DNA from: a bacterium
GTDB taxonomy: Bacteria; UBP6; UBA1177
Assembly: GCA_016290135.1 (NCBI GenBank)
Contig: JAEESW010000001.1
Coordinates: forward strand, 55,565 to 119,564
Length of the DNA: 64,000 nt
Reading direction: 5' to 3'
Each line of letters starts with the position of its first letter. Within the stretch, counting starts at the first letter, position 1. The position numbers were made by a program, and so were the translations under genes. Shown here one piece after another: positions 1,308 through 31,577 of this stretch. The notes beneath the pieces were generated by a model. The model was given only the letters and a program-made list of their open reading frames with translations. It was not told the DNA's origin and made no database searches.

Positions 1308-1313
1308 GTTTTG

Positions 1314-2144: not shown

Positions 2145-2149
2145 GGCAA

Positions 2150-3310: not shown

Positions 3311-3353
3311 GGCAGAATATTCTTGAAGTATAGGAAGTCGAGATAGGGGAGAA

Positions 3354-5701: not shown

Positions 5702-5703
5702 TT

Positions 5704-6717: not shown

Positions 6718-7885
6718 ATTTGTTTGCTATTTTTTGAATATCCTAATTGTTTTATATGCGATAGCGGATTTTATGAGCAGTGCAAGTGCGGGAAATGCTA
6801 ACACGCAAAGGGGAACTGTATATGCTGCCCTGATTTCAATAATTCTTATTATGATGTTGAAAATACTTCCTTCACACTCTATAAAAATTAATAGCTTTTC
6901 AAAATATTTGTCGATTTTTGTGCTCTACTATTTTTTTAATAAATTTGTTTTGTCGTGGAATGTTGAATGGTTTCATGCGGTCTATTTAGGTCTTTGTATA
7001 TGGTGGATTTTAACAATCCGGTTCTTTAGAGATATGCAGGATAAAGAACCGTCAACTTACCGTTTGTATTCTAAATTTTGTCTTTTTATGTTTTTCTTTT
7101 ATGTGTTTGTGGTTTTATATGGAGCTGTAAATATAGTAGCTAGGTTTTCGAGTATACAATTCGCTAGAGTTGGATATGCTTATCATCTTCTTTCTATTTT
7201 GCCGATGATTCTTCTTAATCAAGACAGAAAATCTAAATTGTTATTTATTTCAATCGGCATGGTTGCAGTTGTAATATCATTGAAACGTGGTGCTATTATA
7301 GCTTTTCCAATAGTGTTATTTGTTTATTTCTATGTCGAGAACTTAACAGGACATGCACATAATAATATAAGAAAAATACTTTTAGCTATGCTTGTTTTTT
7401 TTGTCGTCTGTGTGATATTTGACAACTATTCTGAAGGCTTTCTTAGCAGCAGATTCGAAATGGAAGAAATAAGTGAAGGTTCTGGGAGGGCCGAGGGAAC
7501 AATGGATACCTTAAGAAATATAAGTAAAAGAGACTTGTTACAGTTAACTTTCGGTATCAAAGCTCGATCTGAAGAATCTCTGGGAGGTGGGGCGCATAAT
7601 GAATATTTGAACCGTTTGGAGTCAGTGGGTATAGTTGGTTTTTTACTATATTTGACTTTAATGTTCTCCTTAATTAGGACTTCGGTGGTGTTGATCCATA
7701 AAAAATCGATTTTGGCAGCATCCTTCTCTGCAATGACAATCTATTCTATTGGTATTGGTCTTGTTAGTGGATGGTTATTTATGCATTCTACCTTCTATAT
7801 TATGATGTATATAGGTTTTGTAACTTCTTTGGCGACCAAAGAGGAAAATGAAATTAAGAATATTTTAGTAAAAGAGGTCTGTTAG
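6710..7885 (+). CDS. wzy: Polysaccharide/O-antigen polymerase (Wzy, O-antigen-ligase-like polytopic membrane protein)
   Basis: About 10 hydrophobic helices. A large loop carries 'GGGAHNEYLNRLESVGIVGF', a Wzy_C-like motif. Very low GC. The start codon is uncertain (TTG 6710). Confidence 0.65.
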   Translation: MNKFVCYFLNILIVLYAIADFMSSASAGNANTQRGTVYAALISIILIMMLKILPSHSIKINSFSKYLSIFVLYYFFNKFVLSWNVEWFHAVYLGLCIWWILTIRFFRDMQDKEPSTYRLYSKFCLFMFFFYVFVVLYGAVNIVARFSSIQFARVGYAYHLLSILPMILLNQDRKSKLLFISIGMVAVVISLKRGAIIAFPIVLFVYFYVENLTGHAHNNIRKILLAMLVFFVVCVIFDNYSEGFLSSRFEMEEISEGSGRAEGTMDTLRNISKRDLLQLTFGIKARSEESLGGGAHNEYLNRLESVGIVGFLLYLTLMFSLIRTSVVLIHKKSILAASFSAMTIYSIGIGLVSGWLFMHSTFYIMMYIGFVTSLATKEENEIKNILVKEVC

Positions 7886-7886
7886 C

Positions 7887-8999
7887 GTGAAAATAGGAAT
7901 TTTGACTTTTCATTATGTTGATAATTATGGTGCTGTTCTTCAAACTTATGCATTGTATCGCTATCTGACTTCTCTAGGTTGTACTGTTGAGATCATTGAC
8001 TATAACAATAGTTCTCATCGGAAAAAATCTACAAAAAAGCTCAGTTTGATAAGGACCGCGATTTGGAGCAACATTCGTAAGCTGATATTTGGGACGAAAA
8101 AGCATGAAGGGTTTGAGTTGTTTCGTATAAATAAGCTTAATATATCGAGTCAGAAACAGATAAATACAAAATTAGAGATGATAGATTTTCTGAAAGATGG
8201 TAAGTTTGACTATATTTTTGTTGGCAGTGATCAGGTGTGGAATCCTAAAATTACAGGTGCTGATTCCTCTTATCTTTTGGATATAGACAATTTGCCTATT
8301 CAAAGAGTAGCTTATGCTGCAAGCATCGGCAAATCATCTGTTGATAATGAATGGCTTAAAAGATTAGTAGAACAAATCAAAGGATATAAAGCTGTGTCGG
8401 TGAGAGAAAAAACAGCTGTAAATGTGATAAAAATGGCTGGATACGACAGAAAAATTTCGGTCGTTGCAGATCCTGTTTTTTTGCTTGACAGTACTTTGTG
8501 GAGCGAGGTCGCTGCCCAAGACGATATCCCATCTAATTATATATTGTGCTATATAATGCCTGGTGACAATTTGATTGAGACAAATATAGAACAAACTGCA
8601 AAATTGATGAGTAAAGAACATGGGCTTAAATTGGTGTTCTTGGGAAGGAGGGAATATAAATATTTTAAAAAAGATGGCGAAGATTATATATATGCATCGC
8701 CTGAATTGTTTCTTGAGCTTTTTAAAAATGCAGGCATGATATTGACCAACTCGTTTCACGGCACAGCGTTTTCAATTATTTTTCAAAAAAATTTTTATTC
8801 ATTCGTAAATACAAATTTGTCGCCAGAACGTCAACTTGGTTCAAGAATAATTGATTTGTTGGAGATATGCGGGTTAAGTTCTAGGTGCTCTAATTCAATT
8901 GTTCACGAATTTTCTTCTATAGATTATGAGATTGTGAATAACTGTGTTCGTGGTTTTGTAGACAAAAGCGAAAAGTTTATATCGGAAAGTTTATTATAA
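7887..8999 (+). CDS. Polysaccharide pyruvyl transferase family protein
   Basis: 'MKIGILTFHYVDNYGAVLQTYAL', 'GSDQVWNP' and 'TNSFHGTAFSIIF' are motifs shared with WcaK/CsaB-type pyruvyl transferases. Confidence 0.8.
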   Translation: MKIGILTFHYVDNYGAVLQTYALYRYLTSLGCTVEIIDYNNSSHRKKSTKKLSLIRTAIWSNIRKLIFGTKKHEGFELFRINKLNISSQKQINTKLEMIDFLKDGKFDYIFVGSDQVWNPKITGADSSYLLDIDNLPIQRVAYAASIGKSSVDNEWLKRLVEQIKGYKAVSVREKTAVNVIKMAGYDRKISVVADPVFLLDSTLWSEVAAQDDIPSNYILCYIMPGDNLIETNIEQTAKLMSKEHGLKLVFLGRREYKYFKKDGEDYIYASPELFLELFKNAGMILTNSFHGTAFSIIFQKNFYSFVNTNLSPERQLGSRIIDLLEICGLSSRCSNSIVHEFSSIDYEIVNNCVRGFVDKSEKFISESLL

Positions 9000-9017
9000 T
9001 TTGTTGAGGAGGGTGAA

Positions 9018-10163
9018 ATGCATTTCCTGAGTTGTGCCGGAGAACTGAATCATCATGGAAGATTTATGTGTGACGCTATGCATGCACTGTTAGGAAACAA
9101 TTATAGGAGGATTACGACAAGTTTTGTAAATAAAACAAGAAAAAATCTGGGATTCCATGATGAACAGTTGAGTTATAGCATTGATGGAAGTCTTTTTAAT
9201 AAAGAACAAATCGTAAATTGGATAAAATGGGCAGATGTTGTTGATTTCGGTTCTGCTCCCGAAATTTTTTTACATGAAGCTGTAAGACAGAATAAAGTTG
9301 TTTTTATCAGAATGGAAAGAATATTGAAAGAGGGTGTCTGGAAGTTGTTTGTTCCATCTGTTTTTGCGCGTTATCATAGAAAATACATACAATATCGTAA
9401 TAATAAAAATGTTTATTTTTTGTGTGTGAGTGCATATGCAGCCGGTGATTTGAAAAAAATATTTGTCAGAGGAGACAGGGTTTTACAATGGGCTTATTGT
9501 CCTGAGTTTGTAAACTATGATAATGTAATGACTATTTTCAAGTCGGATAATAGCGAAAAAAAGCCTTTGCATATTTTTTGGTGTGGAAGATTAATTCCGT
9601 TGAAGCACCCAGAGGTACCTGTTTGTATAGCGGAAAAACTTAAGTTCAAAGGGATTGAATTCCATATGGAGTTGGCCGGTGCCGGAGAATTATTTGCTAG
9701 TCTTCAAAGAATGATTAAGGAAAAAAACTTGGAGCAGCAAGTTTCTTTGATAGGGGCTGTAATTGCCGATAAAATGCGATCTAAAATGATGGAGAATGAT
9801 ATATTTATAGCATCTTCCGATTATCATGAAGGATGGGGGGTAGTTATAAATGAAGCGATGAATAGTGGATGTGCTGTTGTGGCATCAAGAGAAATGGGAT
9901 CTGTTCCTGTTCTTATCGAAGATGGGGTAAATGGTTATTCTTTTTGTTGGAAAGATATTGATGCGGCTGTAGGAATTATAGAAAATCTTGCCAAAGATAG
10001 ACAGAAACTCGCAAAAATAAAGATGGCTGCTTATCAAACAATTAAAACACGGTTTAGTCCAGAGGTGTATGCAAATGTATTTGTGCAGATTGCGCAAGAT
10101 GCTATAGAACATCATGCCTTGAAAATAGAAAGTGGTTTGGGAGCACCTGCCATCATAAGATAG
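9018..10163 (+). CDS. Glycosyltransferase family 4 (GT-B)
   Basis: 'SSDYHEGWGVVINEAMNSGCAVVAS' (E-x7-E) and 'FWCGRLIPLKHPE'. Confidence 0.75.
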   Translation: MHFLSCAGELNHHGRFMCDAMHALLGNNYRRITTSFVNKTRKNLGFHDEQLSYSIDGSLFNKEQIVNWIKWADVVDFGSAPEIFLHEAVRQNKVVFIRMERILKEGVWKLFVPSVFARYHRKYIQYRNNKNVYFLCVSAYAAGDLKKIFVRGDRVLQWAYCPEFVNYDNVMTIFKSDNSEKKPLHIFWCGRLIPLKHPEVPVCIAEKLKFKGIEFHMELAGAGELFASLQRMIKEKNLEQQVSLIGAVIADKMRSKMMENDIFIASSDYHEGWGVVINEAMNSGCAVVASREMGSVPVLIEDGVNGYSFCWKDIDAAVGIIENLAKDRQKLAKIKMAAYQTIKTRFSPEVYANVFVQIAQDAIEHHALKIESGLGAPAIIR

Positions 10164-10271
10164 CTAACTTATAAAGGTGGCTTAGGTGTTTTGGTAGCGT
10201 TAAAAAATAGCAAGATAGTGAACTTGACATGAGAAGTGGAATGATAAAACGATTTAAAATGGAGATTTGTG

Positions 10272-12473
10272 ATGTTTGATTTTAATATTATTACATTCCA
10301 GAGAGCGATAAATTTCGGGGCTGCTCTTCAATCTTATGCTTTGCAAGAGTTTATAAAAAAACAAAATTATAATGCCGGGATATATGATTACATAAAGCCT
10401 GTAACAATTGGTATAAATGCGACCCTGAAAGGTAAGGTAAAGAAAATATTGACAAAATTTACCCGAGATAAAAAGGCAAAATCAAGAGAAGTTCAAAAAT
10501 ATGCCGAGTTCCGCGAAAAATATTTCAATCTTAATCTTGATACCAAAAGCCGTATCTTTGTTACTGGAAGCGATCAGGTATGGAATTTGAATAGCAGCAT
10601 GGATTCAATGTTCTTTCTACAGTTCCTGGATGACTCCGTTTATAAAATTTCGTATGCTGCAAGTATGGTAACAACTGATGTCCCGAATGACAGAAAAGAT
10701 CTTGTAAAAAAATATCTTAAAACATTTGATGCAATATCGGTTAGAGAGGAAGGGATCAAAGAGAGTTTAAGTCCGTTTTGCGATAAAGACATTTCGGTCA
10801 ATGTCGATCCGACGCTTTTACACGATAAAGCATTTTACCGCAATATCGCTAATCCGGTGAAAGGTATTCCTGAGAAGTATATCCTCGCTTATATTCTCCA
10901 TATTCCCAAAAACGGAAACAAGCTTATAAAGTGGCTGCGTAAGGAAACCGGATTGCCGGTCGTTCTTTTGGATAGTTCAGGCGCAGTCGGCATGGTTGTT
11001 AAAAATGATATGATCGTTAGAGATGCTGGACCGCAGGAGTTTGTCTATCTTTTTGATAATGCGGAATGTGTAGTTACGACGTCTTTTCACGGAACATGCT
11101 TTTCATTGATATTTGAAAAGGAGTTCTATTCCATTGTCAATCCTGATTCGCCAAGCAGAATATCAAATATTCTCAAAAAGGTCGGTGTTCAACCGATAAG
11201 TGAAACTGATACGCAGTTCACAAGAAGAAACAGTATCGATTGGGATCATGTGAGGGATGTTCTTGCTCTGGAAAGAGAACGTAGCAGACAATATATTCAA
11301 AATGCTTTTGAGATTGCTAAAAATAAAAAGGCTGTTAAACCAAGCGGCACTGTCGCTTTGATGAACGATACCTGCACAGGATGTGCCGCATGCGAGGATG
11401 TTTGCCCGACAAATGCTATAAGCATGGTGTTGAATTCCAAAGGTTTTTACGAACCATCTATTGATGAGACCAAATGCGTGAACTGCAGCAGGTGCATTCA
11501 GTCATGCCCTTTAAATACAAAGCAGGTCGTCTGGCCGAAGAAAGCATATTACGGCTGGAACTCATCTTCTGAGGTGTTGTTTAAGAGTTCTTCAGGAGGA
11601 GCTTTTTACTCGATAGCTCAAACAGTCCTGCAAAAAGGTGGAGTCGTTTTCGGGGCTACTTATTCTGAAGATTGGAAAGACATCGTTTTTGAATGCACGG
11701 ATGATGTCGCGTTAGAAAAATTGCAAAAGAGCAAATACACAGTCAGTGCCGCATCCGGATTGTATAAGAGGATAAGAAAATATTTGAATGACGGCCGACA
11801 GGTGCTGTTTACAGGGACACCGTGTCAATGCGCCGGAATAAAAAGCGTGTTCGGTGATGAATATGGAAATCTGATCACTTGCGATTTTATCTGCGGCGGA
11901 ATGCCTTCGCTTTCATTTTACCGCGAACATATAGAGGCTTTGCAGAAAAAATACGGCTCTCCTATTACATCTTTGGATTTTCGTTCAAAAGAGTGGGGTT
12001 GGGGAAGGATGCGCCTCTTTGCGCGTTTTGAAAACGGCAAAAAGTATATAAAAAGAGATTTTGCCGATGTGTATTTCAAATGCTTTAATGCTAAAGTATC
12101 TGTGCGCAAGGTTTGTGCGGGATGTCCATATTATCATTTTCACCGTTCGGATTTCACAATAGCTGATTATTGGGGATATCGTGCGGCAGGGATCAAAAAA
12201 CATAAAAGCGGAATGTCACTTGTAGTCTGCAACAATGAAAAAGCTGAAAAAATATTTGGTGGAATAAAGGATTTCGAAAAATTCGAGATCCCAATCGAAT
12301 ACACGCATTACGCTGTCAGAGACAAGATCCCTAGAGCGGACATTCTGAAAGGCAATGACCGCTTTTTCAAACTCGCAGCCGAAAAAGGTTTTGAGGCGGC
12401 AGCACTTAAAATGTATGACATAAATGAATTGCATTATTACATCAAAAAACTAAGAAAAATGTTGCATTTGTAA
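10272..12473 (+). CDS. Fusion protein: polysaccharide pyruvyl transferase, 2x[4Fe-4S] ferredoxin motifs and a coenzyme F420 hydrogenase/dehydrogenase beta-subunit-like (FrhB-like) domain
   Basis: N-terminal half repeats the pyruvyl-transferase motifs ('ITFQRAINFGAALQSYAL', 'GSDQVWN', 'TTSFHGTCFSLIF'). The middle has 'CTGCAACEDVCP' and 'CVNCSRCIQSCP'. The C-terminal roughly 300 aa is Cys-rich and FrhB-like. ATG 10272 lies 8 nt after GGAG. Confidence 0.75.
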   Translation: MFDFNIITFQRAINFGAALQSYALQEFIKKQNYNAGIYDYIKPVTIGINATLKGKVKKILTKFTRDKKAKSREVQKYAEFREKYFNLNLDTKSRIFVTGSDQVWNLNSSMDSMFFLQFLDDSVYKISYAASMVTTDVPNDRKDLVKKYLKTFDAISVREEGIKESLSPFCDKDISVNVDPTLLHDKAFYRNIANPVKGIPEKYILAYILHIPKNGNKLIKWLRKETGLPVVLLDSSGAVGMVVKNDMIVRDAGPQEFVYLFDNAECVVTTSFHGTCFSLIFEKEFYSIVNPDSPSRISNILKKVGVQPISETDTQFTRRNSIDWDHVRDVLALERERSRQYIQNAFEIAKNKKAVKPSGTVALMNDTCTGCAACEDVCPTNAISMVLNSKGFYEPSIDETKCVNCSRCIQSCPLNTKQVVWPKKAYYGWNSSSEVLFKSSSGGAFYSIAQTVLQKGGVVFGATYSEDWKDIVFECTDDVALEKLQKSKYTVSAASGLYKRIRKYLNDGRQVLFTGTPCQCAGIKSVFGDEYGNLITCDFICGGMPSLSFYREHIEALQKKYGSPITSLDFRSKEWGWGRMRLFARFENGKKYIKRDFADVYFKCFNAKVSVRKVCAGCPYYHFHRSDFTIADYWGYRAAGIKKHKSGMSLVVCNNEKAEKIFGGIKDFEKFEIPIEYTHYAVRDKIPRADILKGNDRFFKLAAEKGFEAAALKMYDINELHYYIKKLRKMLHL

Positions 12474-12504
12474 ATATGCGAAGAAAAGAGTTTAAGGGAT
12501 ATAG

Positions 12505-14034
12505 ATGAGTAGTTTGCAGAAACTCGCTACTTCAAAAAAACTGGCTGTAATCATCACATATATTTCGCTGATAGTTCATACTTTAAGCAATTTAGTCCTT
12601 ACGCCGCTCTATTTGAATTATCTCGGTCTGGATCAGTATGGTCTTTATCAGATGATTTATACGGTCGCAAGTTATATCCTTATTCTTGATTTCGGCATAA
12701 ACACTGCGATGGTGCGCTATATCTCCAAATATCATGCTACTAACGACTATGAATCTGAGAAGAATTTTTCGGCTCACTGTCTGATCACAGTCGCTACCAT
12801 TATTGTTTTGATGATGGCGGCCGGCCTTATAATGAATGAGTTTTTGTTGGACATATACCCCACAATAACAGCTGAAGAGGCTGGTGTTGCCCATCAGCTG
12901 ATGCTACTGATGCTTGTCGTTGTTTCCGGAACAATATTGGAAAGATTTGTGTCTGGATGTGTATCTGCGTATGAGCATTTTACGGTCAATAATGCGGTAG
13001 GTGTTGTGAAATTAATATTAAAAATCCTTCTGACGATACTATTCCTTTATATCGGTATGGGAGTGATTGCGGTTGTCTTGGTAGATGTGATAGTGATACT
13101 TTTATCAATCATGTTTCGTTCAATATACGCAATCAAACAGTTGCATTTCAAAATTAAGTTGAGCAAGTTCGATTTTACTCTGATCATAGACCTCATTTCC
13201 TTTATGTTTCCCGTTTTTCTTCAGGCCATTATCGGCTATATAAATAATTATGTTGACAAGACAGTGCTTGGTATCATGACATCTAAAGCAGATGTCGCGA
13301 TATATTCGATCGCTACGACTTTCATAGCCTTGTTTAACGCATTGCCTTCCGCTATTTCAGGAGTCTTTTTGCCTAAAGCGACCAAGATGATATTCGGTGG
13401 AAGTTACAACAGTGATGATCTCACGAATTTTGTTATCCGACCAGGCAGATACCAGTTTATGCTTTGCGGAGGATTTGTGTGCGGATTCGCTTTGTTCGGC
13501 AGAGAATTCATCAGTCTGTGGGCCGGACCGAATACTGTTCAGGCATGGACTGTCGCGATGATCATTATTATCCCGAATATGATCCCGTTGATTCAGAATA
13601 CGGCAGTAAGCATTCTGGATGCACTCAAAAAGAGACTTTTCAGATCAGTTGTGCTCTTTGTTGTCTCTGTAATCCATGTCATAATCTCTGTTTTTCTTGT
13701 TGAAAGATACGGGATGATGGGTGCTCCGATTGGCTCGGCGTTTGCATTTATTATCGGATATGGAGTGGTAATGAATATCTATTATCAAAAAGAAATAAAA
13801 ATTCAGGTCGGAAGACTCTTTAAAACCATTTTCTCAAAAACATGGCTGTGTTTGATACCTGCGGTCGCTGTCGGATTTGTCAGCAACAGATTTTTGCCGG
13901 ATTATTCCTGGATCACTTTGGTTGTAAAAGGCGCCGTTTTTAGTGCGGTTTACGGAGTCGCCTTGCTGTTTTACGGATTTAACAATCAAGAAAAAAAGGA
14001 TTTTTCAATCATACTGAAGAAATTCGGAAAGTGA
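12505..14034 (+). CDS. wzx: Oligosaccharide flippase (Wzx, MOP superfamily)
   Basis: 509 aa with about 12-14 TM helices. Typical position as the last gene of the polysaccharide operon. Confidence 0.85.
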   Translation: MSSLQKLATSKKLAVIITYISLIVHTLSNLVLTPLYLNYLGLDQYGLYQMIYTVASYILILDFGINTAMVRYISKYHATNDYESEKNFSAHCLITVATIIVLMMAAGLIMNEFLLDIYPTITAEEAGVAHQLMLLMLVVVSGTILERFVSGCVSAYEHFTVNNAVGVVKLILKILLTILFLYIGMGVIAVVLVDVIVILLSIMFRSIYAIKQLHFKIKLSKFDFTLIIDLISFMFPVFLQAIIGYINNYVDKTVLGIMTSKADVAIYSIATTFIALFNALPSAISGVFLPKATKMIFGGSYNSDDLTNFVIRPGRYQFMLCGGFVCGFALFGREFISLWAGPNTVQAWTVAMIIIIPNMIPLIQNTAVSILDALKKRLFRSVVLFVVSVIHVIISVFLVERYGMMGAPIGSAFAFIIGYGVVMNIYYQKEIKIQVGRLFKTIFSKTWLCLIPAVAVGFVSNRFLPDYSWITLVVKGAVFSAVYGVALLFYGFNNQEKKDFSIILKKFGK

Positions 14035-14066
14035 GTTTGAGGAAGGGAAATAATGTGCCAGATAAT
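14021..14066 (+). repeat. Direct repeat copy C (core CGGAAAGTGAGTTT at 14025-14038, spanning the wzx stop)
   Basis: Hand alignment gives about 30/42 identity to 15825-15866, and the 14-nt core is identical. Confidence 0.6.
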
Positions 14067-14094
14067 TTTGTAGTTAAATAAAAGGAGTATTTCT

Positions 14095-15792
14095 ATGAGT
14101 TATAGTGCAGAACAAAAAACAGTGAGACATTTGTTAACTTCGCAATTATATAGAATCCCGCGTAATCAACGTAAATATGTTTGGGATAAAGATAATTGGG
14201 AAGATTTATTTCTGGATTTAAATTTTGCAACAAAAAATAACTTGAGCCATTTTATTGGAAGTATGGTACTGTTAAAAGATGAAGAAACAGTCGAAGGACT
14301 TCCTCTATTGGTTGTAATAGATGGCCAACAGAGATTATTTACAATCACAATTTTTTTGGCAGCTTTATTGTTCGTCATGAAAAAATATAATTTACAAAAT
14401 GATTATTATGGAACAGAAAAGTATCTTTATGCCACGGATGATAAAAATATTTCACATCATGTTTTTGAATCATCCTATCATCTTGGTCTTGGCAAAATTT
14501 TGACTGCAATACCAAATTTGAAGTTTGGGAGGAATGTTTCCATTGATTCATTCCTTAAAACACATGTTGCGGACAAAATACGTGATAAAAATATAATGGA
14601 TGCCTTCTCTTTTTATGTGGGTAAAATTGAAGAATTTATATTACAACGAAAAGATGATCCCCAGAGTATAACTGTATTAAAGGATGCTATACTTAATACT
14701 GAATATGTTAGAATAGAGGCAACAACTGAAGAGGATTCTTATACTATTTTTGAAATATTGAATGCCCGTGGTCAAACTTTGGCAGATCATGAATTGTTAA
14801 AAAATTATGTTATGAGATATATAGAGCCGAAAGAAAAGGTCGATAATGTAAAAACAGAATGGGAAGATACGGAAAAACTATTGGGACGCGGTATAAATAA
14901 ATATCTTTTACATTACCTGATTCATAGATATAAGGTCGATGAGAATGATAAAAAAGATGCTTATAAAGCAATAAAAAAATATGTGAAAATAACAGATATA
15001 GAATCATTCTATTCTGATTTTATTCAGAAAGCTCAATATTATTCAAAGTTACAGAATCCAAGATTGGTAGACGGTGACGGTAACGAAATTTGTTCAGATT
15101 TGGAGTATTCAATATTTACTTTTTTTAGGAAAAAAAGACAGGAACAATTTCGGCCAGTTATCCTCAGTTTGATGCATCAAAAAGAATTGGGCGAGTTGCC
15201 TATTGAAGAGTATGAGCAAGCATTGGAATTTATTAAAAACTTTTTTGTATGTTATACTATAATCGGAAAAGCAAAATCAAATACGCTTACTTCTATAATA
15301 TCTAGCTATGCGTTTAAATTGGAAAACTCTTTTTCATCAGATTTGTTAAGGGAATTTTTTAAAAGTTTAAAAGATAGGATTCCGAATAAAGATTGGTTTG
15401 AAAAAGCTTTCTCTATGATTGGTTATTCACATCATTTTAAGTTTTATAATGATGATAAGGAAGAAAAAAAGGCAAGATTGGTCTTGGAAATCTATGAAGA
15501 ATCTTTAGGTAATAAAAATATGCCTAAAGAATACACTATTGAGCATATTTTGCTAGATTCTGATGGAGAACAAAATTCCAATATAGGGAATTTGTTACCT
15601 TTAGAGGAAGGTCTAAATAAAAAATGTGCCAATTTGCCTTTGAAAGATAAAATTAAAATTTACAAAAAATCTGATTTTAAAAGCGTAAGAAGATTTGTTG
15701 ATCGATATGAGAATAAAACGGATACCTTTAAAGTAGAAAAGAGAATGTCGCATTTGGCAACAGAATTTTATAAAATTATTAATAAGGCATAA
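14095..15792 (+). CDS. GmrSD-family type IV restriction-like nuclease (DUF262 N-terminal, DUF1524 His-Me finger C-terminal)
   Basis: 'YRIPRNQRKYVW' and 'VIDGQQRLFTITIF' (DGQQR) are DUF262 motifs. The C-terminal 'YTIEHILLDS...NIGNLLPLEEGLNKKCANL' is DUF1524-like. Confidence 0.85.
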   Translation: MSYSAEQKTVRHLLTSQLYRIPRNQRKYVWDKDNWEDLFLDLNFATKNNLSHFIGSMVLLKDEETVEGLPLLVVIDGQQRLFTITIFLAALLFVMKKYNLQNDYYGTEKYLYATDDKNISHHVFESSYHLGLGKILTAIPNLKFGRNVSIDSFLKTHVADKIRDKNIMDAFSFYVGKIEEFILQRKDDPQSITVLKDAILNTEYVRIEATTEEDSYTIFEILNARGQTLADHELLKNYVMRYIEPKEKVDNVKTEWEDTEKLLGRGINKYLLHYLIHRYKVDENDKKDAYKAIKKYVKITDIESFYSDFIQKAQYYSKLQNPRLVDGDGNEICSDLEYSIFTFFRKKRQEQFRPVILSLMHQKELGELPIEEYEQALEFIKNFFVCYTIIGKAKSNTLTSIISSYAFKLENSFSSDLLREFFKSLKDRIPNKDWFEKAFSMIGYSHHFKFYNDDKEEKKARLVLEIYEESLGNKNMPKEYTIEHILLDSDGEQNSNIGNLLPLEEGLNKKCANLPLKDKIKIYKKSDFKSVRRFVDRYENKTDTFKVEKRMSHLATEFYKIINKA

Positions 15793-15797
15793 TGTAG

Positions 15798-15866
15798 TAC
15801 CAAACAAAAACCAGATAGAGTTGGCGGAAAGTGAGTTTATGGTGGCGAAATAAGGCGAAAGCGGAA
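15798..15866 (+). repeat. Direct repeat copy A, starting 6 nt after the GmrSD stop
   Basis: 'TACCAAACAAAAACCAGATAGAGTTGGCGGAAAGTGAGTTT...'. Its 5' part matches copy B (16652-16702) and its 3' part matches copy C (14025-14066). Confidence 0.65.
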
Positions 15867-15915
15867 AAGGAACCAAATGATTGATGTCTGGAAAATGTGA
15901 ATGGAGGGAGATGAA

Positions 15916-16651
15916 ATGGGAAAGAAAAAGTCTTCGAGGGTAATATCAACTGCAGATGTTGAAATGGCGCAAAATTGCAAAATTGTGCTTCCTAGGAAGC
16001 ATAGGGAAGATATTGATCCGTATCAAACATTTTCTGCCAATATTGAAAGAGCAGAATATTTTATTGAATTATACAAACAAAAGATAAAAGTGAGGGCCTG
16101 TAAGGGACGCCCGCCAATATCTGATACTGATATGCTTAGGGCAGGGGTGGTTTTTTTTACACTCCACAGTGGAAGAATATTTGAGAACAATTATTAGACG
16201 GCGCAAAATTTCCTTGTTGAAAAGTAATGAATCTTGGAACGATGTATTGCGGGATGTTTCTCTTCCTGGCAGAAATTACGGAAAATCAACTGCAGCAAAA
16301 ATAGAGCTAAATGAATTGTTTGAATACAAGGATAAGACTGTTTTGGAGTTGGTTCAGGACGCTTTAAATGAAAAGGTGGATTATTTAACATTTAATGACT
16401 ACTCTCAGATTGTTAATTCTTTGAAATCAGTGGGAATAAGGTTGCCTAGCAAAGATAAAGAAATAGATTGCGAAAGTATAAATTCCTATATAAAAAGACG
16501 TCATAAAATTGTCCATGAAGCAGATAAAAACGAGATTGCAGGAAAAGGTAACTATCGCACTCAATCAATTAATTCTAATCAATTAAAAAAATGGGTTGAG
16601 GCGGCAAAAGTTCTTGTCGATAAAATTAATGAAATATATGCGCAATTATAG
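15916..16651 (+). pseudogene. HEPN-superfamily protein (Rx4H 'RHKIVH'), reading frame broken at a T8 run (16151-16158)
   Basis: Track ORFs 15901-16197 (frame 1) and 16169-16651 (frame 2) overlap. Frame 2 is open from 16094. Removing one T from the T8 run joins '...DMLRAGVVF' to 'LHSTVEEYLRTIIRRR...' as one ORF of about 245 aa. The second ORF has no good start (GTG, no RBS). Confidence 0.6.
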
Positions 16652-16702
16652 TGCCAAACAAAAACTGGATAAAGATTCGGCGGAAAAGGGAAAGTGAGTG
16701 TA
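16652..16702 (+). repeat. Direct repeat copy B, starting immediately after the HEPN stop
   Basis: 'TGCCAAACAAAAACTGGATAAAGATTCGGCGGAAAAGGGAAAGTGAGTGTA'. Hand alignment gives about 38/45 identity to copy A, with a 7-nt insertion. Confidence 0.65.
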
Positions 16703-16795
16703 GGTAAACCCCGCTTCTTTTCTCTGGGAACGACCTGATATTTTTCTGACCTTTCTTTGTTTAAAAAAATCTTAATTTTTTTTCAAAAGAGACCC

Positions 16796-16823
16796 TTGAA
16801 ACTGGGGAAAGTGTGTCTATAAG
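16796..16823 (+). promoter_or_regulatory. Putative sigma70-type promoter of the CBASS-like operon
   Basis: TTGAAA (16796-16801), 16-nt spacer, TATAAG (16818-16823). Lies about 50 nt upstream of ATG 16871. Confidence 0.4.
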
Positions 16824-16870
16824 AGACGGCATGATTTTCACAAAAGTGGAGTCAGAGGAGTTTTTGGGGG

Positions 16871-17707
16871 ATGAGGAAGTTGATGAACAAAATTGTAGAC
16901 TGGAAAAGAGAATACGTACAAACAGCATTGTTGACTTTAATTATTGTCGCCAATGTCTGTTTTAATTTACCTGAAATTGCGAAGAACGTATTAGCAGATG
17001 CCTCAGTTCAAATGTCTGAACTAGATCCTAAATGGCGTCTTGCTATTGGTTTTGGTCGATGGGTATTTGCTATAGTTGTTGTTGTAGGATTATGGTTTGT
17101 CATCAAATATTTCAATAAGGATTATGTCTTAAAGCAAAATATTTCCAATGATATAGTCTGGCATACATATTTTGATTACTGGTTTTGTCGGTATTTTTTG
17201 AGCATAAAAAAGTTGTCTTTGACCAGAATGCCGATACCTATGCAGTTTAAGCTCGTGTGGAAGGATCTCTTTTTAGAGTATGATTATATGGACGGCATCA
17301 CAGAAAAGGAAGAGGCTAAGGATAAGGTAAAAGTTGAACGATTTCAGGATAATCCTCTGACATCTACAGTTAACCTTGTTCTTGCAGATACCTACCCGCT
17401 GGATTGGAAAAGCAAGCTCCCTGCATCGGTCCTAAATCTTACGACTATTGTGATAGACCGCACAGGTGAGAAAGGCACTAGATACTATAGTCGGGATTTT
17501 GTAAAAAAGATTTCATCAACAGTACATGATCTTCCAAACAATGTGACGACGATCAACCTGTTTGCAACGATTAATGCTGCTCACTGTTACCATATAACAA
17601 AGGAGGTGTTTATGACGGGAGGCAGAGACTCGCTGAAGCATCTTGTCGTCTATGAACAATCAAAGGGTAGTTGGGTTTTTGAGGGGAAGAATATAAAAGT
17701 GTTTTAA
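16871..17707 (+). CDS. Two-TM membrane protein with an unassigned C-terminal domain of about 190 aa; candidate CBASS effector/sensor (SAVED/CARF-like?)
   Basis: Hydrophobic helices 'TALLTLIIVANVCFNL' and 'WVFAIVVVVGLWFVIKYF'. The C-terminal segments 'VNLVLADTY' and 'TINLFATINAAHCYHITKEVF' look like Rossmann-like beta-strand/loop elements. The gene ends 11 nt before the CD-NTase gene. Confidence 0.45.
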   Translation: MRKLMNKIVDWKREYVQTALLTLIIVANVCFNLPEIAKNVLADASVQMSELDPKWRLAIGFGRWVFAIVVVVGLWFVIKYFNKDYVLKQNISNDIVWHTYFDYWFCRYFLSIKKLSLTRMPIPMQFKLVWKDLFLEYDYMDGITEKEEAKDKVKVERFQDNPLTSTVNLVLADTYPLDWKSKLPASVLNLTTIVIDRTGEKGTRYYSRDFVKKISSTVHDLPNNVTTINLFATINAAHCYHITKEVFMTGGRDSLKHLVVYEQSKGSWVFEGKNIKVF

Positions 17708-17718
17708 GGAGATTAAAA

Positions 17719-18888
17719 ATGGCATACTCGAAAGAACAGTTAGAACGTATTTTTAGTGATTTGGCTGCCAGGATAAATATTAGCGATGCCCTATTCAAAG
17801 TAGCAGATGAAGAGTACACAGCCTTGGGCAAATGGATCAATAATGAAACAGAAAAGAATGGCACGAAGTATAAAGTTCTCATATATCCTCAGGGGTCGTT
17901 TGCTTTAGGAACAGTAATCAAGCCGATATCTGATGAGGATGATTATGATCTGGATCTGGTATGCCTGGTCGAGAACGGTATGAACTTTTCTGCTAAGCAG
18001 TTGAAGTTGGATGTCGTGAAACCTTGGCTTATAGGATATAAGAAAACCAAGAATGACATTGAAGAGAAAAGGCGTTGCTGGCATTTGGAGTATGAGGATG
18101 TTCCACACTTCCACATGGATGTTATTCCTGCAATACCGAGTCCTTTTCCCAACTCTGATAGTACAATTAGCATCACGGATAAAAATGTCGATAGATCTCC
18201 GGTTTATGAATACCAAGAGAGCAATCCCAAAGGGTATGTACAATGGTTTTTTCAACGCTGCCGCCAGAAGAAGATGGGAAGTTCTGGCCTGGAGGTTATG
18301 AGCGAGATGGCTCAACAGGAGGATTTGAAGCGAAATAAGAATAAGACACAACTTCAGAAAGCTGTACAAATTTTGAAGCGTCATAGAGATGTAATGTTTA
18401 AGGACGATCCAGACAACAAGCCTATCTCTATCATTATTACAACTCTCGCTGGTCAGATATATCATGGAGAAACTACTATTCTTGATACGCTTCTTGGATT
18501 TGTTGGAGAAGTAGAGCACTATCTGAAATCTCATTGCAAAGAAGATGGCAGCTATAGTATTCCAAATCCGAGTTATAATGGTGAAGATTTTGCAGACAAA
18601 TGGAAAGATCATCCGGAGAGGCAAACTGCATTTTTCTCTTGGATTAAACAGTTGCAGTCTGATTTCAATCTTGAAAATCTTATGAACCAAGATCGTGTAG
18701 CGATGGGCAATATCGTAAAAGAAGCATTCGGCTCTACCACAGGAAAAGCAATATTCAGCCAAATGGGATATGAAGAAGCTAATGAAGTTAAAGATGGAAT
18801 TCGGAAAGTTGACACAGTAACAGGTAATTTATCAAAAACCGGAATAGTGGCCATTTCTCCAAGTAGGCATTATGGCGAGATTCAATAA
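17719..18888 (+). CDS. cGAS/DncV-like nucleotidyltransferase (CD-NTase, SMODS-type)
   Basis: 'YPQGSFALGTVIKP' (GS motif), 'DDYDLDLVCLV' (DxD) and 'FHMDVIPAIP' (third acidic residue). 389 aa. Sits between a TM protein and an E2-like protein. Confidence 0.8.
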   Translation: MAYSKEQLERIFSDLAARINISDALFKVADEEYTALGKWINNETEKNGTKYKVLIYPQGSFALGTVIKPISDEDDYDLDLVCLVENGMNFSAKQLKLDVVKPWLIGYKKTKNDIEEKRRCWHLEYEDVPHFHMDVIPAIPSPFPNSDSTISITDKNVDRSPVYEYQESNPKGYVQWFFQRCRQKKMGSSGLEVMSEMAQQEDLKRNKNKTQLQKAVQILKRHRDVMFKDDPDNKPISIIITTLAGQIYHGETTILDTLLGFVGEVEHYLKSHCKEDGSYSIPNPSYNGEDFADKWKDHPERQTAFFSWIKQLQSDFNLENLMNQDRVAMGNIVKEAFGSTTGKAIFSQMGYEEANEVKDGIRKVDTVTGNLSKTGIVAISPSRHYGEIQ

Positions 18889-19327
18889 ACCTATTACCTT
18901 GGCACAGCAAGAGATTAAGCTGAGAAAGGTATATCCCAACCTCATTGATAAAATTAGTGTGTCACGCAATGAATTGAGCTGTGTAATGAGGCTTCAGCCG
19001 ACTGCAGAAAGCAGAGAATATAAGGTAAATATTAGGTTCAAAATTGGATCTTGGCCCAAAGTAAAACTGGTGGATCCCAAAGAAATAGTTTTGGTAGACG
19101 GGAAGAAGCCACATCATCTTTACGGCAGAAGTGTTGATGGTGGGGAAAGGCTTTGCGTGTTTTATCCTAAGGACTGTGGGTGGACGGATAACCACTTCTT
19201 GGCAGATACATTTGTTCCATGGGTAATCACTTGGTTGAGTGCTTATGAGATCTGGCAAATTACAGGTGTTTGGGTCTATCCAGAATATGTTGATGGTAAG
19301 CCAAAGCAAGATCAAACTAAGGACTAG
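18872..19327 (+). CDS. Minimal E2 (UBC)-like protein, Cap2-short-like
   Basis: 151 aa. 'KKPHHLYGRSVDGGERLCVFYP' mimics the E2 HPN-x(n)-Cys active-site region (H81/H82, C95). 'FVPWVITWLSAYEIWQITGVW' follows. The start overlaps the CD-NTase 3' end by 17 nt. Confidence 0.5.
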   Translation: MARFNKPITLAQQEIKLRKVYPNLIDKISVSRNELSCVMRLQPTAESREYKVNIRFKIGSWPKVKLVDPKEIVLVDGKKPHHLYGRSVDGGERLCVFYPKDCGWTDNHFLADTFVPWVITWLSAYEIWQITGVWVYPEYVDGKPKQDQTKD

Positions 19328-19396
19328 AGATTTCGTATATTCCGTCCTAATGACAAACAAAATTTTTAACATCCCCATCTTGAAATGAGGTTTGAT

Positions 19397-19419
19397 GCAG
19401 GAATTATTAATTCCCCTGC
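19397..19419. terminator. Possible bidirectional hairpin between the convergent E2-like and HEPN genes
   Basis: GCAGGAATTA-T-TAATTCCCCTGC is an imperfect stem with a 2-nt bulge. It overlaps the last codons of the minus-strand ORF. There is no clean T-run. Confidence 0.3.
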
Positions 19420-20291
19420 TGTTTTAGGAAATACAGCAAAACCGTGTTAAGGACATCCGTAAAAAGCCAAAGCATCCTGGAAACAAAAAGTGGAGTTAGC
19501 ATTTCTTTGTCGATGTTCTTCCAATGTGCTAATGAATTCCGGATGTTAAGCCCTATACCATTAGACTCAGATAAGAGAAATTGAAGACTTTTCAGATGAT
19601 CATAATTAAAAATTTGTTCTATTTTTTTGTCCCAAAGCAATGTCCCGAGAGTTTTTCCGCTTTTGTTTTTATTTTTATTTTTGTCTCCTTTCTTTGTTTT
19701 ATCATCTTTTTCTTCAGGTATATTTTTGCTTTCATTTACATATGCTATTCTCAACAATTTTTCGATTATAGCACATGTCAGGCTTTCTATGGTGTAGCAC
19801 ATGGAATGCAATACTATTTCGGGACACTTATTCTGATTTCTGAGGATATATTCTAAGTTTTCGTGCAAAAAATCGACATCTTTTAATAAATTCTCGTCGT
19901 TGCTGGTTTCTTTATTGATAAGAGAAACGATGTTCTAAATTGATGCTATGTATTTATTCAAAGCATCGGGGCGGCTCATAAATCCCTCTAGTAAACCAGA
20001 ATACATTACAGAATATGCTAACAGCTGTGTTTTGCGCTCAACTGTAAAATACGGGTCTTTGTCTGGTTTGTCATTGTTATATTCTGGTATCGAATTTAAA
20101 ACTGCTATCAATTCTTCATGAACATTATCCGCGAGATAACTGATATATTTAGTATCTCCGTCTTTAATTTCTTTGTGATGAGTGATTTCAAGTAGTTGTT
20201 CTTCGAGTGGTAAGTTTGGATCGAGATTTTCTATCCATCGTTCCAGAAGATAATTCAAATTGCGCTTAGGCTGATTTTCTTGATCTGTCAT
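19407..20291 (-). pseudogene. HEPN-superfamily protein ('NIRNSLAH', DUF4209-like RNxxxH) interrupted by a single in-frame TAG (19935-19937)
   Basis: Track ORFs 19935-20291 and 19407-19868 are in the same frame. The 22 codons between them (NIVSLINKETSNDENLLKDVDF) contain no stop. The downstream ORF begins only at TTG with no RBS. The upstream ORF has AAGGAG 7 nt before ATG 20291. The combined reading frame is 294 codons. Confidence 0.6.
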
Positions 20292-20478
20292 AACAAAACT
20301 CCTTTTTTCAATAACAATAATCTGTTCTCTTTGTTTTCATTCCAAATATACATTGTGTTTGAAAACGCCATTATAAATAAGCACTTTCCCTTGAAGTCAA
20401 GAGGCTGACATGGATTCTTACGTATAAATTTTGGTGAAGTAACAAATTGTGACTTCACCAGATTCGACAACACCTCAT

Positions 20479-20508
20479 GACTGAGAGGACGGAGCTGTCA
20501 CAAATCGA
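20479..20508 (+). repeat. Copy 1 of the short motif pair GACTGAGAGGA / GGAGCTGTCACAAATCGA
   Basis: The same two blocks recur in swapped order at 21560-21588 (GGAGCTGTCGCAAAGCGA/CTGAGAGGGA). Confidence 0.5.
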
Positions 20509-20555
20509 TAAATGAAAAATTTAAAATTCGGTTAAAATAAAAATCTAAAAATAAT

Positions 20556-20583
20556 TTGACTTTTAAAAATAAGTGACTATATT
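20556..20583 (+). promoter_or_regulatory. Putative sigma70-type promoter of the MNT/HEPN operon
   Basis: TTGACT (20556-20561), 16-nt spacer, TATATT (20578-20583). Confidence 0.55.
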
Positions 20584-20591
20584 ACTTCCAT

Positions 20592-20669
20592 CGGTGAGTC
20601 CTACCGTTAAGTGGAATCTTTAAAAGCAGTGAACCCTACTGTGAGTGGGAACTTTAAAAGCGGTGAGAA
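20592..20669 (+). repeat. Tandem direct repeats (35 nt, 34 nt and a 9-nt partial) in the 5' leader of the MNT/HEPN operon
   Basis: R1 is CGGTGAGTCCTACCGTTAAGTGGAATCTTTAAAAG (20592-20626). R2 is CAGTGAACCCTACTGTGAGTGGGAACTTTAAAAG (20627-20660). The partial CGGTGAGAA runs into ATG 20670. Hand alignment gives about 26/35 identity. Confidence 0.7.
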
Positions 20670-21011
20670 ATGAACAAGAAGATGATTGACAGCGCGATGA
20701 AGGACCTCGCGGCTGAAGCAAAAAACATATACGGTGAAAAACTGAAAGAAGTGATTCTTTTCGGTTCTTGCGCAAGAGGCGATTTCGAGGATGACAGTGA
20801 TGTTGATATAATGATCCTTCTCGATGTGCCGAGAAGCGAAGTCGAAGAAGCCAATCACAAAATGGGTTCCGTGATAAGCAGACTTGATAAAAAATATGAA
20901 TACGAACTTCTGTTTTCCCCCATTGTGCAGAGCTACAGCGAGTTCAATTACTGGATCGAAGCCCTTCCTTTTTATCAAAATGTCCGTAAAGAAGGCATAA
21001 GGTATGCGTGA
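20670..21011 (+). CDS. Minimal nucleotidyltransferase (MNT) antitoxin of an MNT/HEPN pair
   Basis: 'ILFGSCARGDFEDDSDVDIMILLD' (GSxxRG...DxD). 113 aa. Overlaps the HEPN gene by 8 nt. Confidence 0.85.
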   Translation: MNKKMIDSAMKDLAAEAKNIYGEKLKEVILFGSCARGDFEDDSDVDIMILLDVPRSEVEEANHKMGSVISRLDKKYEYELLFSPIVQSYSEFNYWIEALPFYQNVRKEGIRYA

Positions 21012-21417
21012 AATCAGCCAGCAGGCAAAAGATTTGTCGATATATCGACTGGAAAGAGCGAAAGAAGACTGTACCGCTGCCGAAAACAATTTAGGGCTTA
21101 AAGATCTCAGAACTGCAGTAAACCGCGCATATTATGCTATATTTCATGCTTTGAGAGCGGTTCTGGCACTTGACGAATACGACTCTAAGAAACACAGCGG
21201 AATCATAAGCGAATTTCGTCTGCGCTATGTCAAAACCGGCATTTTCGACGAAGAAATATCCGATATGATCGGCAAAGCATTCCAGGTAAGGAACAAGTCT
21301 GATTATGAAGATATGTACATCGTTAGCAGAAACGATACCGAAATTCAGATACGAAACGCAAAAACTATTATTGACGCGGTCGAAAAATATCTGAAAGACG
21401 AAAAAATAATCGGCTGA
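21004..21417 (+). CDS. HEPN-domain toxin of an MNT/HEPN pair
   Basis: 137 aa and all-helical. 'AYYAIFHALRAVL' and 'FQVRNKSDYED' are classical HEPN (PF05168-type) motifs. Confidence 0.85.
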   Translation: MREISQQAKDLSIYRLERAKEDCTAAENNLGLKDLRTAVNRAYYAIFHALRAVLALDEYDSKKHSGIISEFRLRYVKTGIFDEEISDMIGKAFQVRNKSDYEDMYIVSRNDTEIQIRNAKTIIDAVEKYLKDEKIIG

Positions 21418-21492
21418 ATCAGTGATTCTGATATCGAAATCCTCTCGCTTTTCCTAAAAAAATCAGTATAATGCAGCGGTTTGACCTCTTTG

Positions 21493-21588
21493 CCCTCTCC
21501 GTCAGCCTTTGGCTGCCACCTCTCCCTGAGTGAGAGGCAAGCTTGGCTCCCACTTTGGGGGAGCTGTCGCAAAGCGACTGAGAGGGAG
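21493..21588. repeat. Imperfect palindromic intergenic element of about 95 nt (copy 2 of the GGAGCTGTC.CAAA.CGA / CTGAGAGGGA motif)
   Basis: Outer arms CCCTCTCCGTC (21493-21503) and GACTGAGAGGG (21576-21586) match 10/11 as reverse complements. Inner hairpins are CCTCTC-N7-GAGAGG (21519-21537) and GTCGC-AAA-GCGAC (21566-21578). Confidence 0.55.
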
Positions 21589-21620
21589 ATAAAAAGGGTG
21601 AGGTCTTTACGGAGGTTTCA

Positions 21621-22862: not shown

Positions 22863-22941
22863 GTGTTTCTGTATATTGATTTTTTGCGAGATTATTATAT
22901 CTTTCCGCCTGAATTCGTTTTTTACATTTCGGAGGTAAACA

Positions 22942-24258: not shown

Positions 24259-24318
24259 TCTTTCTGCTCCGGCCTCGAATCGCGGATGAGGCATTTCGTG
24301 AAACATCTCTGCAGGTTC

Positions 24319-24346
24319 TTGACTTCGTTCGGGAAATCATTAAAAT
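24319..24346 (+). promoter_or_regulatory. Putative sigma70-type promoter of guaB
   Basis: TTGACT (24319-24324), 16-nt spacer, TAAAAT (24341-24346). Confidence 0.5.
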
Positions 24347-24357
24347 GCCGCAACTGA

Positions 24358-25854
<1,497 letters not shown>

Positions 25855-25869
25855 TAATAAAGAGGTTGC

Positions 25870-27186: not shown

Positions 27187-27292
27187 TCGCCGATTTTTAT
27201 TGCAATAAGTCAAAAAAAATATTATGCCTCAGTTGTTCTTTGTTTTGTGAAATCAGGTGTCCCGTTTTTAATATTTTTTTTAGGAGTGAAAA

Positions 27293-31566: not shown

Positions 31567-31577
31567 TTTTCCTCCTT

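Follow-up and report, generated by a model that had tools for sequence, protein, structure and literature searches.

A probable integrase-free defense hotspot at the seam between the assembly and nucleotide-sugar halves of a bacterial surface-polysaccharide locus

In the 64,000-nt stretch of DNA from an uncultured gut bacterium analyzed here (the window; contig JAEESW010000001.1), a dense block of predicted anti-phage genes lies between the two halves of a surface-polysaccharide locus, namely a Wzx/Wzy-type assembly half, up to wzx, and a nucleotide-sugar half headed by ugd. This block, the island at positions 14035-21620, contains eight reading frames forming five modules in 7.6 kb; as predicted from homology, three of these are anti-phage systems that are still intact, and the other two were broken recently. 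With a probability of roughly 0.7, it is an integrase-free defense hotspot located at the seam of the two halves, whose cargo is swapped by homologous recombination. The original prediction, made from the sequence alone, had proposed five defense-type modules: a GmrSD enzyme, a HEPN gene, an operon resembling CBASS (a system of anti-phage signaling based on cyclic oligonucleotides), a second HEPN gene and an MNT/HEPN pair. Its limits proved correct, with the wzx stop codon TGA at 14032-14034 and the ugd ATG at 21621, and all five modules were found at the coordinates it had given, with matches to defense families in Pfam and PADLOC. The claim that no integrase or transposase is present was also borne out. 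Coding sequences occupy 6528 of the 7586 nt of the island and the gaps, which total 1058 nt, do not exceed 378 nt, which leaves no room for an integrase inside the island, while the other large open reading frames (ORFs) of the window are housekeeping genes. No tRNA was found across the 64-kb window.

The variability of this seam is supported by comparison with the four comparator loci that carry it (L002, L003, L178 and L194), a comparison called for by the original prediction, which revealed different cargo at the same place. In L002, the seam is occupied by an IspD-like cytidylyltransferase, a pyruvyl transferase, an epimerase, KwaA/KwaB, an acyltransferase and AbiEi/AbiEii, followed by a promoter/leader sequence and ugd. 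In L003, an acyltransferase, AbiEi/AbiEii and an ORF6N gene (PDC-S05) precede the core of the same promoter and a degT-rmlA-rmlB-ugd series. L194 carries the same MNT/HEPN pair as the window, the leader and ugd, directly followed by guaB, the second nucleotide-sugar dehydrogenase gene of the window (dh2) being absent. Finally, L178 carries an intact RiboL-PSP HEPN gene alone, then ~400 nt and a 5'-truncated ugd, without the leader. Defense genes are located immediately 5' of the same promoter/leader in the window, L002, L003 and L194, with nucleotide-sugar genes downstream.

Sequence identity between these loci is mosaic. The HEPN unit of the window is 93.6% identical to that of L178 and the corresponding ugd genes are 81.7% identical; similarly, L002 and L003 share an AbiE module at 95.6% identity and ugd at 81.2%, and the window and L194 share MNT/HEPN and the leader at 99-100% identity and guaB at 88.5%. 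The ugd gene is itself composite. Compared with L194, its first two-thirds are 79-89% identical and its last third 94-99%, and compared with L002, an identity of 90-100% up to ~22080 gives way to 67-79% after 22480. Such blocks of different history, which meet at gene boundaries with no recombinase, find their best explanation in horizontal transfer followed by homologous recombination within conserved flanks.

On its right side, the hotspot is bordered by the promoter/leader, which precedes ugd. Between window 21441-21616 and the stretch adjoining the 5' end of ugd in L002 (9821-9996), identity is 98.3%, and the first ~40-46 nt of this window sequence are also found in L003, ahead of degT-rmlA-rmlB-ugd. 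In L194 (~620-800), the leader is 97-100% identical. The predicted fold of this leader has a minimum free energy of -62 kcal/mol (z = -1.96) and no Rfam match. Across three lineages (window, L002 and L194), the leader remains 97-100% identical and the ugd genes that it precedes differ by 12-20%. It may be a cis-regulatory RNA or a recombination anchor of the hotspot. A conserved leader, JUMPStart/ops, is known upstream of polysaccharide operons. The present leader is similarly a conserved non-coding sequence located just 5' of polysaccharide genes, but it resembles no Rfam family. The dh2 gene itself appears as an insertion or deletion, since window positions 22861-24315 correspond to 2040-2050 in L194, where ugd is directly followed by the guaB promoter region.

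Base composition provides no evidence for insertion into the polysaccharide locus. The four hand counts of G+C made over 60-nt lines (20/60, 24/60, 33/60 and 33/60) were exact, and from them a sharp compositional break had been proposed. A likelihood change-point search supports this break at the right border, where the G+C (GC) fraction rises from 0.379 to 0.478 at ~21470, but not at the left border, where a modest step from 0.387 to 0.321 at ~13970 mainly reflects GmrSD (29.5% GC, the lowest among the island genes). The left step is small because the polysaccharide genes are just as rich in AT as those of the island: GC content is 37.2% in the polysaccharide segment 6001-14034 and 36.2% in the island as a whole, with per-gene values of 0.33-0.47 and 0.295-0.424, respectively. 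Further right, GC reaches 0.49 in ugd, 0.46 in dh2 and 0.48-0.54 in the core genes. The low-GC trough, from ~5900 to ~21470, takes in the polysaccharide locus and the island together. As composition does not separate the two, GC was abandoned as evidence that the island was inserted into the locus. The other elements of the proposed nested defense cluster stand, that is, its position between polysaccharide assembly and nucleotide-sugar genes, its lack of a mobility gene and its variability.

Relatives of the window have also been sought with other anchors. Look-ups of the exact ugd, dh2 and GmrSD proteins returned the same strain only (at least 99.95% DNA identity), and contigs with identical island proteins belong to this strain and have the same arrangement. 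Genomes with a GuaB 95-98% identical share only the guaB-POT segment (window 24301-27187, 87-92% DNA identity) and 30383-32456. Conserved synteny with these genomes starts at ~24301-24318, upstream of guaB. In this upstream region, they possess either an ABC ATPase with an M23 peptidase or, in other cases, an MmeI-type enzyme along with surface proteins, the content being entirely different from that of the window even when GuaB is 97-98% identical. The whole part left of ~24300 is thus lineage-specific, and the GuaB relatives cannot display an empty wzx-ugd junction. With ugd as synteny anchor among species-representative genomes, 80 loci from many phyla were retrieved; these are not syntenic, since ugd travels with polysaccharide loci, and only L002 and L003 were useful, via the leader. 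With dh2 as anchor in metagenomes, the best matches were 85% identical, and none had guaB beside dh2 or a relative of an island gene.

Several points weigh against a recurrent hotspot with recombining cargo. No relative was found in which the polysaccharide genes are the same and the seam is empty, and insertion events were not observed. The comparison loci, whose relatedness is uncertain, are metagenome-assembled genomes or metagenome contigs; L002 and L003 are labeled Spirochaetales and L178 and L194, among others, are short, and the recurrence is deduced from four comparator loci only. The defense function itself is a prediction drawn from homology and context alone. Lastly, a flanking motif common to GmrSD and the RiboL-PSP HEPN gene, described below, is unexplained by plain homologous recombination.

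In the proposed scenario, single genes or operons would arrive by horizontal transfer, and cargo would be swapped in and out by homologous recombination anchored in the conserved flanks, chiefly in the promoter/leader and ugd. Receptor variation and intracellular immunity would then move as one variable block. GmrSD is predicted to cleave modified phage DNA, and covalent attachment to its E2 partner would both restrain and prime the CBASS nucleotidyltransferase (CD-NTase). On infection, this enzyme would be expected to synthesize a cyclic nucleotide activating the 2TM membrane effector, which would kill the infected cell. Since GmrSD, HEPN and CBASS share the strand of the polysaccharide operon and no convincing terminator follows wzx, they may be transcribed by read-through from this operon. 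GmrSD and the HEPN gene have relatives in other defense contexts, which makes both of them itinerant modules. Surface polysaccharides are phage receptors and defense systems constitute a second line of protection. If both are indeed nested and exchanged as one block, a single transfer could alter phage adsorption and intracellular blocking at once, which would bear on the spread of phage resistance in gut communities. The locus also supplies natural material: a CBASS of the E2 type along with its 2TM effector, a GmrSD distant from the characterized ones and two HEPN genes, each one point change from intact.

Capsule and O-antigen loci are exchanged by homologous recombination in conserved flanks. 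The present locus is reminiscent of them, with a low-GC variable block within conserved bounds and a mosaic flanking gene, ugd, but its variable cargo extends beyond glycosyltransferases to defense genes. Integrase-free core defense hotspots between conserved genes have been described in the Escherichia coli pan-genome (PMC10121019) and in Pseudomonas aeruginosa (PMC10250203). As in these hotspots, variable defense sets occupy one bounded position, with differing cargo and no mobility gene inside. Here, however, the position is within a surface-polysaccharide locus, the right border is a promoter/leader instead of a core gene, and the evidence comes from five loci versus hundreds of genomes. 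The E. coli study does not mention polysaccharide loci (PMC10121019), and in a limited literature search, no description was found of defense genes nested in such loci. All component systems are of known kinds and integrase-free hotspots are already established (PMC10121019, PMC10250203); the locus extends this existing picture and introduces no new principle.

Table 1. Features of the polysaccharide locus, the defense island and its right flank (window positions).
Feature	Position	Strand	Evidence or remark
Wzx/Wzy-type polysaccharide locus: initiating sugar transferase, epimerase, glycerophosphotransferase, SDR-cytidylyltransferase, three glycosyltransferases, Wzy-like protein, two pyruvyl transferases, Wzx	465..14034	+	Pfam matches; left context of the island
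wzx	12505-14034	+	TGA stop
Boundary motif, copy A	14025..14053	+	Core GGAAAGTGAGT overlaps wzx stop, then 'a' half (…TTTGAGGAAGGGAAATAA)
GmrSD-family type IV restriction enzyme (DUF262 + DUF1524), intact, 565 aa	14095-15792	+	Pfam, PADLOC
Composite boundary motif, copy B	15795..15853	+	'b' half TAGTACCAAACAAAAACCAGATAGAGTTGGCGGAAA right after GmrSD stop, then core and 'a' half
RiboL-PSP-type HEPN pseudogene	15916..16651	+	Split ORFs 15901-16197 and 16169-16651
Boundary motif, copy C	16649..16702	+	'b' half and core; opens with the three bases of the HEPN stop codon
CBASS effector, SUa-2TM membrane protein	16871-17707	+	Pfam 2.9e-35; PADLOC 2TM effector 7.8e-55
CBASS CD-NTase (SMODS/DncV-like cyclase), 389 aa	17719-18888	+	Pfam; PADLOC cyclase 3.5e-110
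CBASS E2-like protein, 151 aa	18872-19327	+	PADLOC E2 1.3e-33; Pfam E2-CBASS
Short DUF4209 (C6orf70-type) HEPN pseudogene, 294 codons	19407..20291 (19935-20291 + 19407-19868)	-	PF13910
Promoter-like site TTGACT-16-TATATT	20556-20583	+	Upstream of MNT; putative function
Two tandem 23-nt direct repeats	20610-20632 and 20644-20666	+	Immediately upstream of MNT start codon
MNT/HEPN pair, intact	MNT 20670-21011, HEPN 21004-21417	+	Pfam NTP_transf_2 9.8e-12, HEPN 2.4e-20
Conserved promoter core (…CCTAAAAAAATCAGTATAATGC…, TATAAT 21466-21471) and structured GC-rich leader	21441..21616	+	Right hotspot border, heads ugd
ugd	21621-22862	+	Pfam; mosaic
dh2, second nucleotide-sugar dehydrogenase	22942-24258	+	Pfam; absent in L194

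The first gene of the island encodes a GmrSD-family enzyme in which both domains have been identified: GmrSD_N (PF03235; 1.2e-28, 101 bits for a cut-off of 33.2) and GmrSD_C (PF07510, DUF1524, a His-Me nuclease; 4.7e-07, 30.2 bits for a cut-off of 23). Its translation contains the motif VIDGQQRL (DGQQR) and a C-terminal …EHILLD…NIGNLLPL…N signature, and it matches a DUF262 protein in the PDB (9jfl). This full-length association of a DUF262 domain with a His-Me-type DUF1524 C-terminal domain is that of the type IV, modification-dependent enzymes GmrSD, BrxU and SspE, and its relatives are likewise embedded in restriction-modification and Abi clusters. One of them (71% identical) is located in a type I restriction-modification operon with two Fic-domain genes, between hsdS and hsdR (L179 3610-15114), and a second one adjoins an Eco57I-like enzyme, AbiJ and toxin-antitoxin genes. 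The protein differs from the known enzymes in that its nearest relatives are just 69-71% identical and its best PADLOC match is the candidate group HEC-06 (6.7e-60), type IV restriction models being also matched.

The CBASS operon starts with the SUa-2TM effector gene, whose product has two N-terminal hydrophobic segments (hydropathy peaks at ~residues 15-37 and 55-83). This gene ends 11 nt 5' of the cyclase gene, which is itself overlapped by the E2 gene over 17 nt. The cyclase retains its active-site residues (GS…DYDLD…HMD) and has as PDB matches 9woo, a cGAS-like entry (1.4e-51), and 8hsb, SmCdnG (6.3e-26), while the E2 protein aligns to SmE2 (8hsb_B) at 1.1e-13 with a conserved loop cysteine (GERLCVFYP; RLC(L/V)F). 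As no E1 or JAB gene, nor any other ORF, is present in the operon, it belongs to the E2-CBASS, or short type II, class, in which a conserved C-terminal glycine has been reported in the cyclase (PMC12948482). Here, the cyclase terminates with …RHYG-EIQ, the glycine being three residues from the end, and this residue is compatible with the cleavage-and-ligation linkage to E2 described in this class (PMC12948482). The closest parallel is the Serratia marcescens SmCdnG-SmE2 pair (PDB 8hsb; PMC12948482). Both systems consist of a CD-NTase and a stand-alone E2 with neither E1 nor JAB. They have in common the cysteine of the E2 loop and a cyclase extended at its C-terminus, with a glycine close to the end, and both CBASS proteins match the solved complex by sequence. 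They differ in that the effector here is an SUa-2TM membrane protein encoded first in the operon, and in that the best PDB match of the cyclase is another cGAS-like entry, 9woo.

The MNT/HEPN pair is intact, as originally claimed (Pfam 9.8e-12 and 2.4e-20). Its two genes overlap by 8 nt and match PADLOC PDC-S09 at 7.9e-27, and the module has PDB matches in 2hsb and 9xbd. The HEPN partner belongs to PF05168, the UPF0332/AF0298 family, of which the motif RNxSDY is kept as RNKSDY. An assignment to HepT/MntA type VII toxin-antitoxin systems was rejected, since the MNT protein scores 30.7 bits, below the NCBIfam MntA equivalog cut-off of 60, and the HEPN protein is of the UPF0332 type (PF05168) and not DUF86/HepT. 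The pair is a toxin-antitoxin-like module, as judged from its domains, that belongs to the broader MNT-HEPN gene-pair class only. The tandem 23-nt repeats preceding it may be a candidate operator, possibly autoregulatory. A 29-nt near-perfect palindrome, GGTGAAGT…ACTTCACC, is present at 20432-20460, within the 378 nt that separate the DUF4209 gene from MNT. A search of 13000-25000 against Rfam at E <= 1 returned no matches, and promoter and terminator scans gave counts not above those of shuffled sequence.

The motif flanking GmrSD and the RiboL-PSP HEPN gene is found at three boundaries (copies A, B and C; Table 1). These two unrelated genes carry the same 38-nt 3' sequence from their stop codons (TAGTRCCAAACAAAAACYRGATARAG…GGCGGAAA) and the same 29-nt element (CGGAAAGTGAGTTT…GAAATAA) 5' of them. 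Copies A and B match over 29 nt with a score of 33 versus 18.5 +/- 2.5 in shuffles, and copies B and C over 38 nt with a score of 42 versus 15.8 +/- 2.4, none of 500 shuffles reaching the observed score in either case. A 26-nt boundary pattern has two occurrences in the window, with 0 expected, and the 14-nt core GGAAAGTGAGT has three sites in 64 kb, namely at the wzx stop, between GmrSD and HEPN, and between HEPN and CBASS. In L178, the homology with the HEPN unit stops inside the core of copy C, at GGGAAA/GTGAGT (the slash marks the end of homology).

It is conceivable, though improbable, that GmrSD and HEPN are site-specific gene cassettes, inserted serially at the wzx stop by a recombinase encoded elsewhere in an integron-like manner, each gene having a ~65-nt site composed of the 'b' half, the core GGAAA/GTGAGT and the 'a' half. 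This ~65-nt element, TAGTRCCAAACAAAAAC…GGCGGAAA/GTGAGTTT…GAAATAA, would then be the hairpin-free recombination site of an undescribed system filing single defense genes at the last stop codon of the polysaccharide operon, an idea to which an equally low likelihood is given. If true, the defense genes would be expressed by read-through and inherited with the receptor-determining locus. Integron cassette arrays are known, as are attC clusters without integrase, including chromosomal integrons of Treponema. The likeness to these arrays consists of single promoterless genes in the same orientation, each followed by a related short 3' element. Tandem insertion would also predict the hybrid nature of copy B, which joins the end of a first cassette to the start of a second one, and would account for a core found at three successive junctions and nowhere else in 64 kb, for the elements common to two unrelated genes, and for the end of the L178 homology exactly at GGGAAA within the motif. 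However, folded as DNA on both strands, the elements are not more stable than shuffles (z = +0.7 to +1.3) and form no hairpins, and hence are not attC sites. No integrase is encoded in the window, there are two units only, R'/R'' core sites are lacking, and the left end of the unit shared with L178 is the start codon and not the 'a' half. A search of 2.65 Mb of comparison loci returned the motif in same-strain contigs and as the known L178 copy only, and a viral collection gave no match. In addition, the 'a' half resembles an ordinary operon junction (stop, Shine-Dalgarno, ATG). A genuine attC/integron array was rejected, the folds being no better than shuffles on both strands and no IntI integrase being present in the window.

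Both stand-alone HEPN genes are disrupted, as the original prediction had recognized, one by a frameshift and the other by a nonsense codon, and intact colinear homologues exist for each. The RiboL-PSP gene (PF18735; 1e-09, 39 bits for a cut-off of 28.4) retains the motif RRHKIVH (R-x4-H), which is invariant in the homologue alignment. Its frame is lost through a +1 shift within eight consecutive T (T8, 16150-16157), and deleting one T restores an open frame, …LRAGVVFLHSTVEEYLRTII…, which aligns colinearly with intact 208-228 aa homologues, one of them 90% identical. L178 carries an intact allele with T7 at this site and 93.6% DNA identity to window 15916-16693. The ratio of nonsynonymous to synonymous substitution rates (dN/dS) between this gene and its intact relative is 0.33, which indicates that it was under purifying selection until recently. 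T8 is found in all independent assemblies of the strain, and no length variation was seen. The commonest intact relative of this HEPN protein, 50% identical and listed in 469 index blocks, is always encoded directly 3' of an Abi_C gene, a partner missing in the window and in L178. In L183-L190 (3073-4627), Abi_C and a RiboL-PSP HEPN gene are constantly paired, and this two-gene module occupies the edge of an element that bears two serine recombinases and a relaxase and is inserted at many different chromosomal sites. In L178, the genes flanking HEPN both look 5'-truncated, one (3-509) coding for an HHH_6-domain protein, as in DnaE, and the other (1748-2779) being ugd without its first ~75 codons; a 62-aa ORF lies on the opposite strand at 1388-1576.

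The second broken gene encodes a short protein of the DUF4209/C6orf70 family (PF13910; 2.3e-07, 31.2 bits for a cut-off of 22.3), which has been assigned to the HEPN superfamily (PMC3710099). An AAGGAG ribosome-binding site precedes its ATG at 20291, and the motif RNSLAH (R-x4-H) is kept, R, N and H being invariant in the homologue alignment. Its only lesion is an in-frame TAG at codon 119 (19935-19937). The closest homologues are intact, 286-303 aa long and colinear end to end, and the closest of all has a glutamine at the stop position, which suggests a CAG to TAG change. Both HEPN lesions are found again in assemblies of the strain made independently from different samples, and sequencing error has been ruled out on this basis.

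In the original prediction, the two lesions had been suggested to fit counter-selection of unguarded RNase toxins. It is doubtful that the broken HEPN genes reflect selection against antitoxin-less RNase toxins, or that T8 is a reversible on/off switch (phase variation). Such explanations would be consistent with the breakage of both solitary HEPN genes while the paired one is intact, with a frameshift located in a homopolymer that has one T more than the intact allele, and with the constant association of the commonest intact relatives with Abi_C, which is missing here. However, the sample consists of two genes, the 90%-identical intact allele of L178 is itself solitary, with no Abi_C, short DUF4209 homologues are intact, and a dN/dS of 0.33 was measured. 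In addition, the MNT/HEPN pair is not a validated HepT/MntA-type toxin-antitoxin system, and the constancy of T8 in all independent assemblies is at odds with a switch. Eight T is short for a contingency tract. Counter-selection is thus not upheld. With one lesion per gene and a dN/dS of 0.33 for the RiboL-PSP gene, the inactivations appear recent, and recent ordinary decay, with a fast turnover of defense genes, fits better.

Least probable is a decayed remnant of one larger mobile element (integrative element or prophage), inserted once and having lost its integrase and ends: the region is low-GC and dense in defense genes, its two pseudogenes could reflect ongoing decay and a HEPN relative occupies the margin of an element bearing serine recombinases and a relaxase, but no integrase fragment, att repeat, tRNA, structural or conjugation gene was found, the gaps amount to just 1058 nt, and the modules differ in GC (0.295 to 0.424) and in history (the HEPN unit alone in L178, MNT/HEPN alone at 99-100% identity in L194), which argues for piecemeal assembly.

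Outside of the island, the segment 27187-30383, which follows guaB-POT and contains an aminotransferase gene, an uncharacterized gene and a PAPS reductase gene, is replaced in the GuaB relatives and may be a second variable spot. At this position, L168 (12888-15440) and L174 (13105-15012) carry DUF1016/YhcG or AAA_14/DUF4143 genes. L174 (2455-5448) and L170 (2110-5181), whose GuaB is 97% identical, also encode restriction-modification enzymes of the MmeI type a few kb 5' of guaB, at the position of the polysaccharide/defense block. Within the polysaccharide locus, window 10269-12473 encodes a 734-aa fusion of polysaccharide pyruvyl transferase, 4Fe-4S and FrhB/FdhB C-terminal domains, and far to the right, a single plus-strand ORF of 3305 aa spans 42103-52020.

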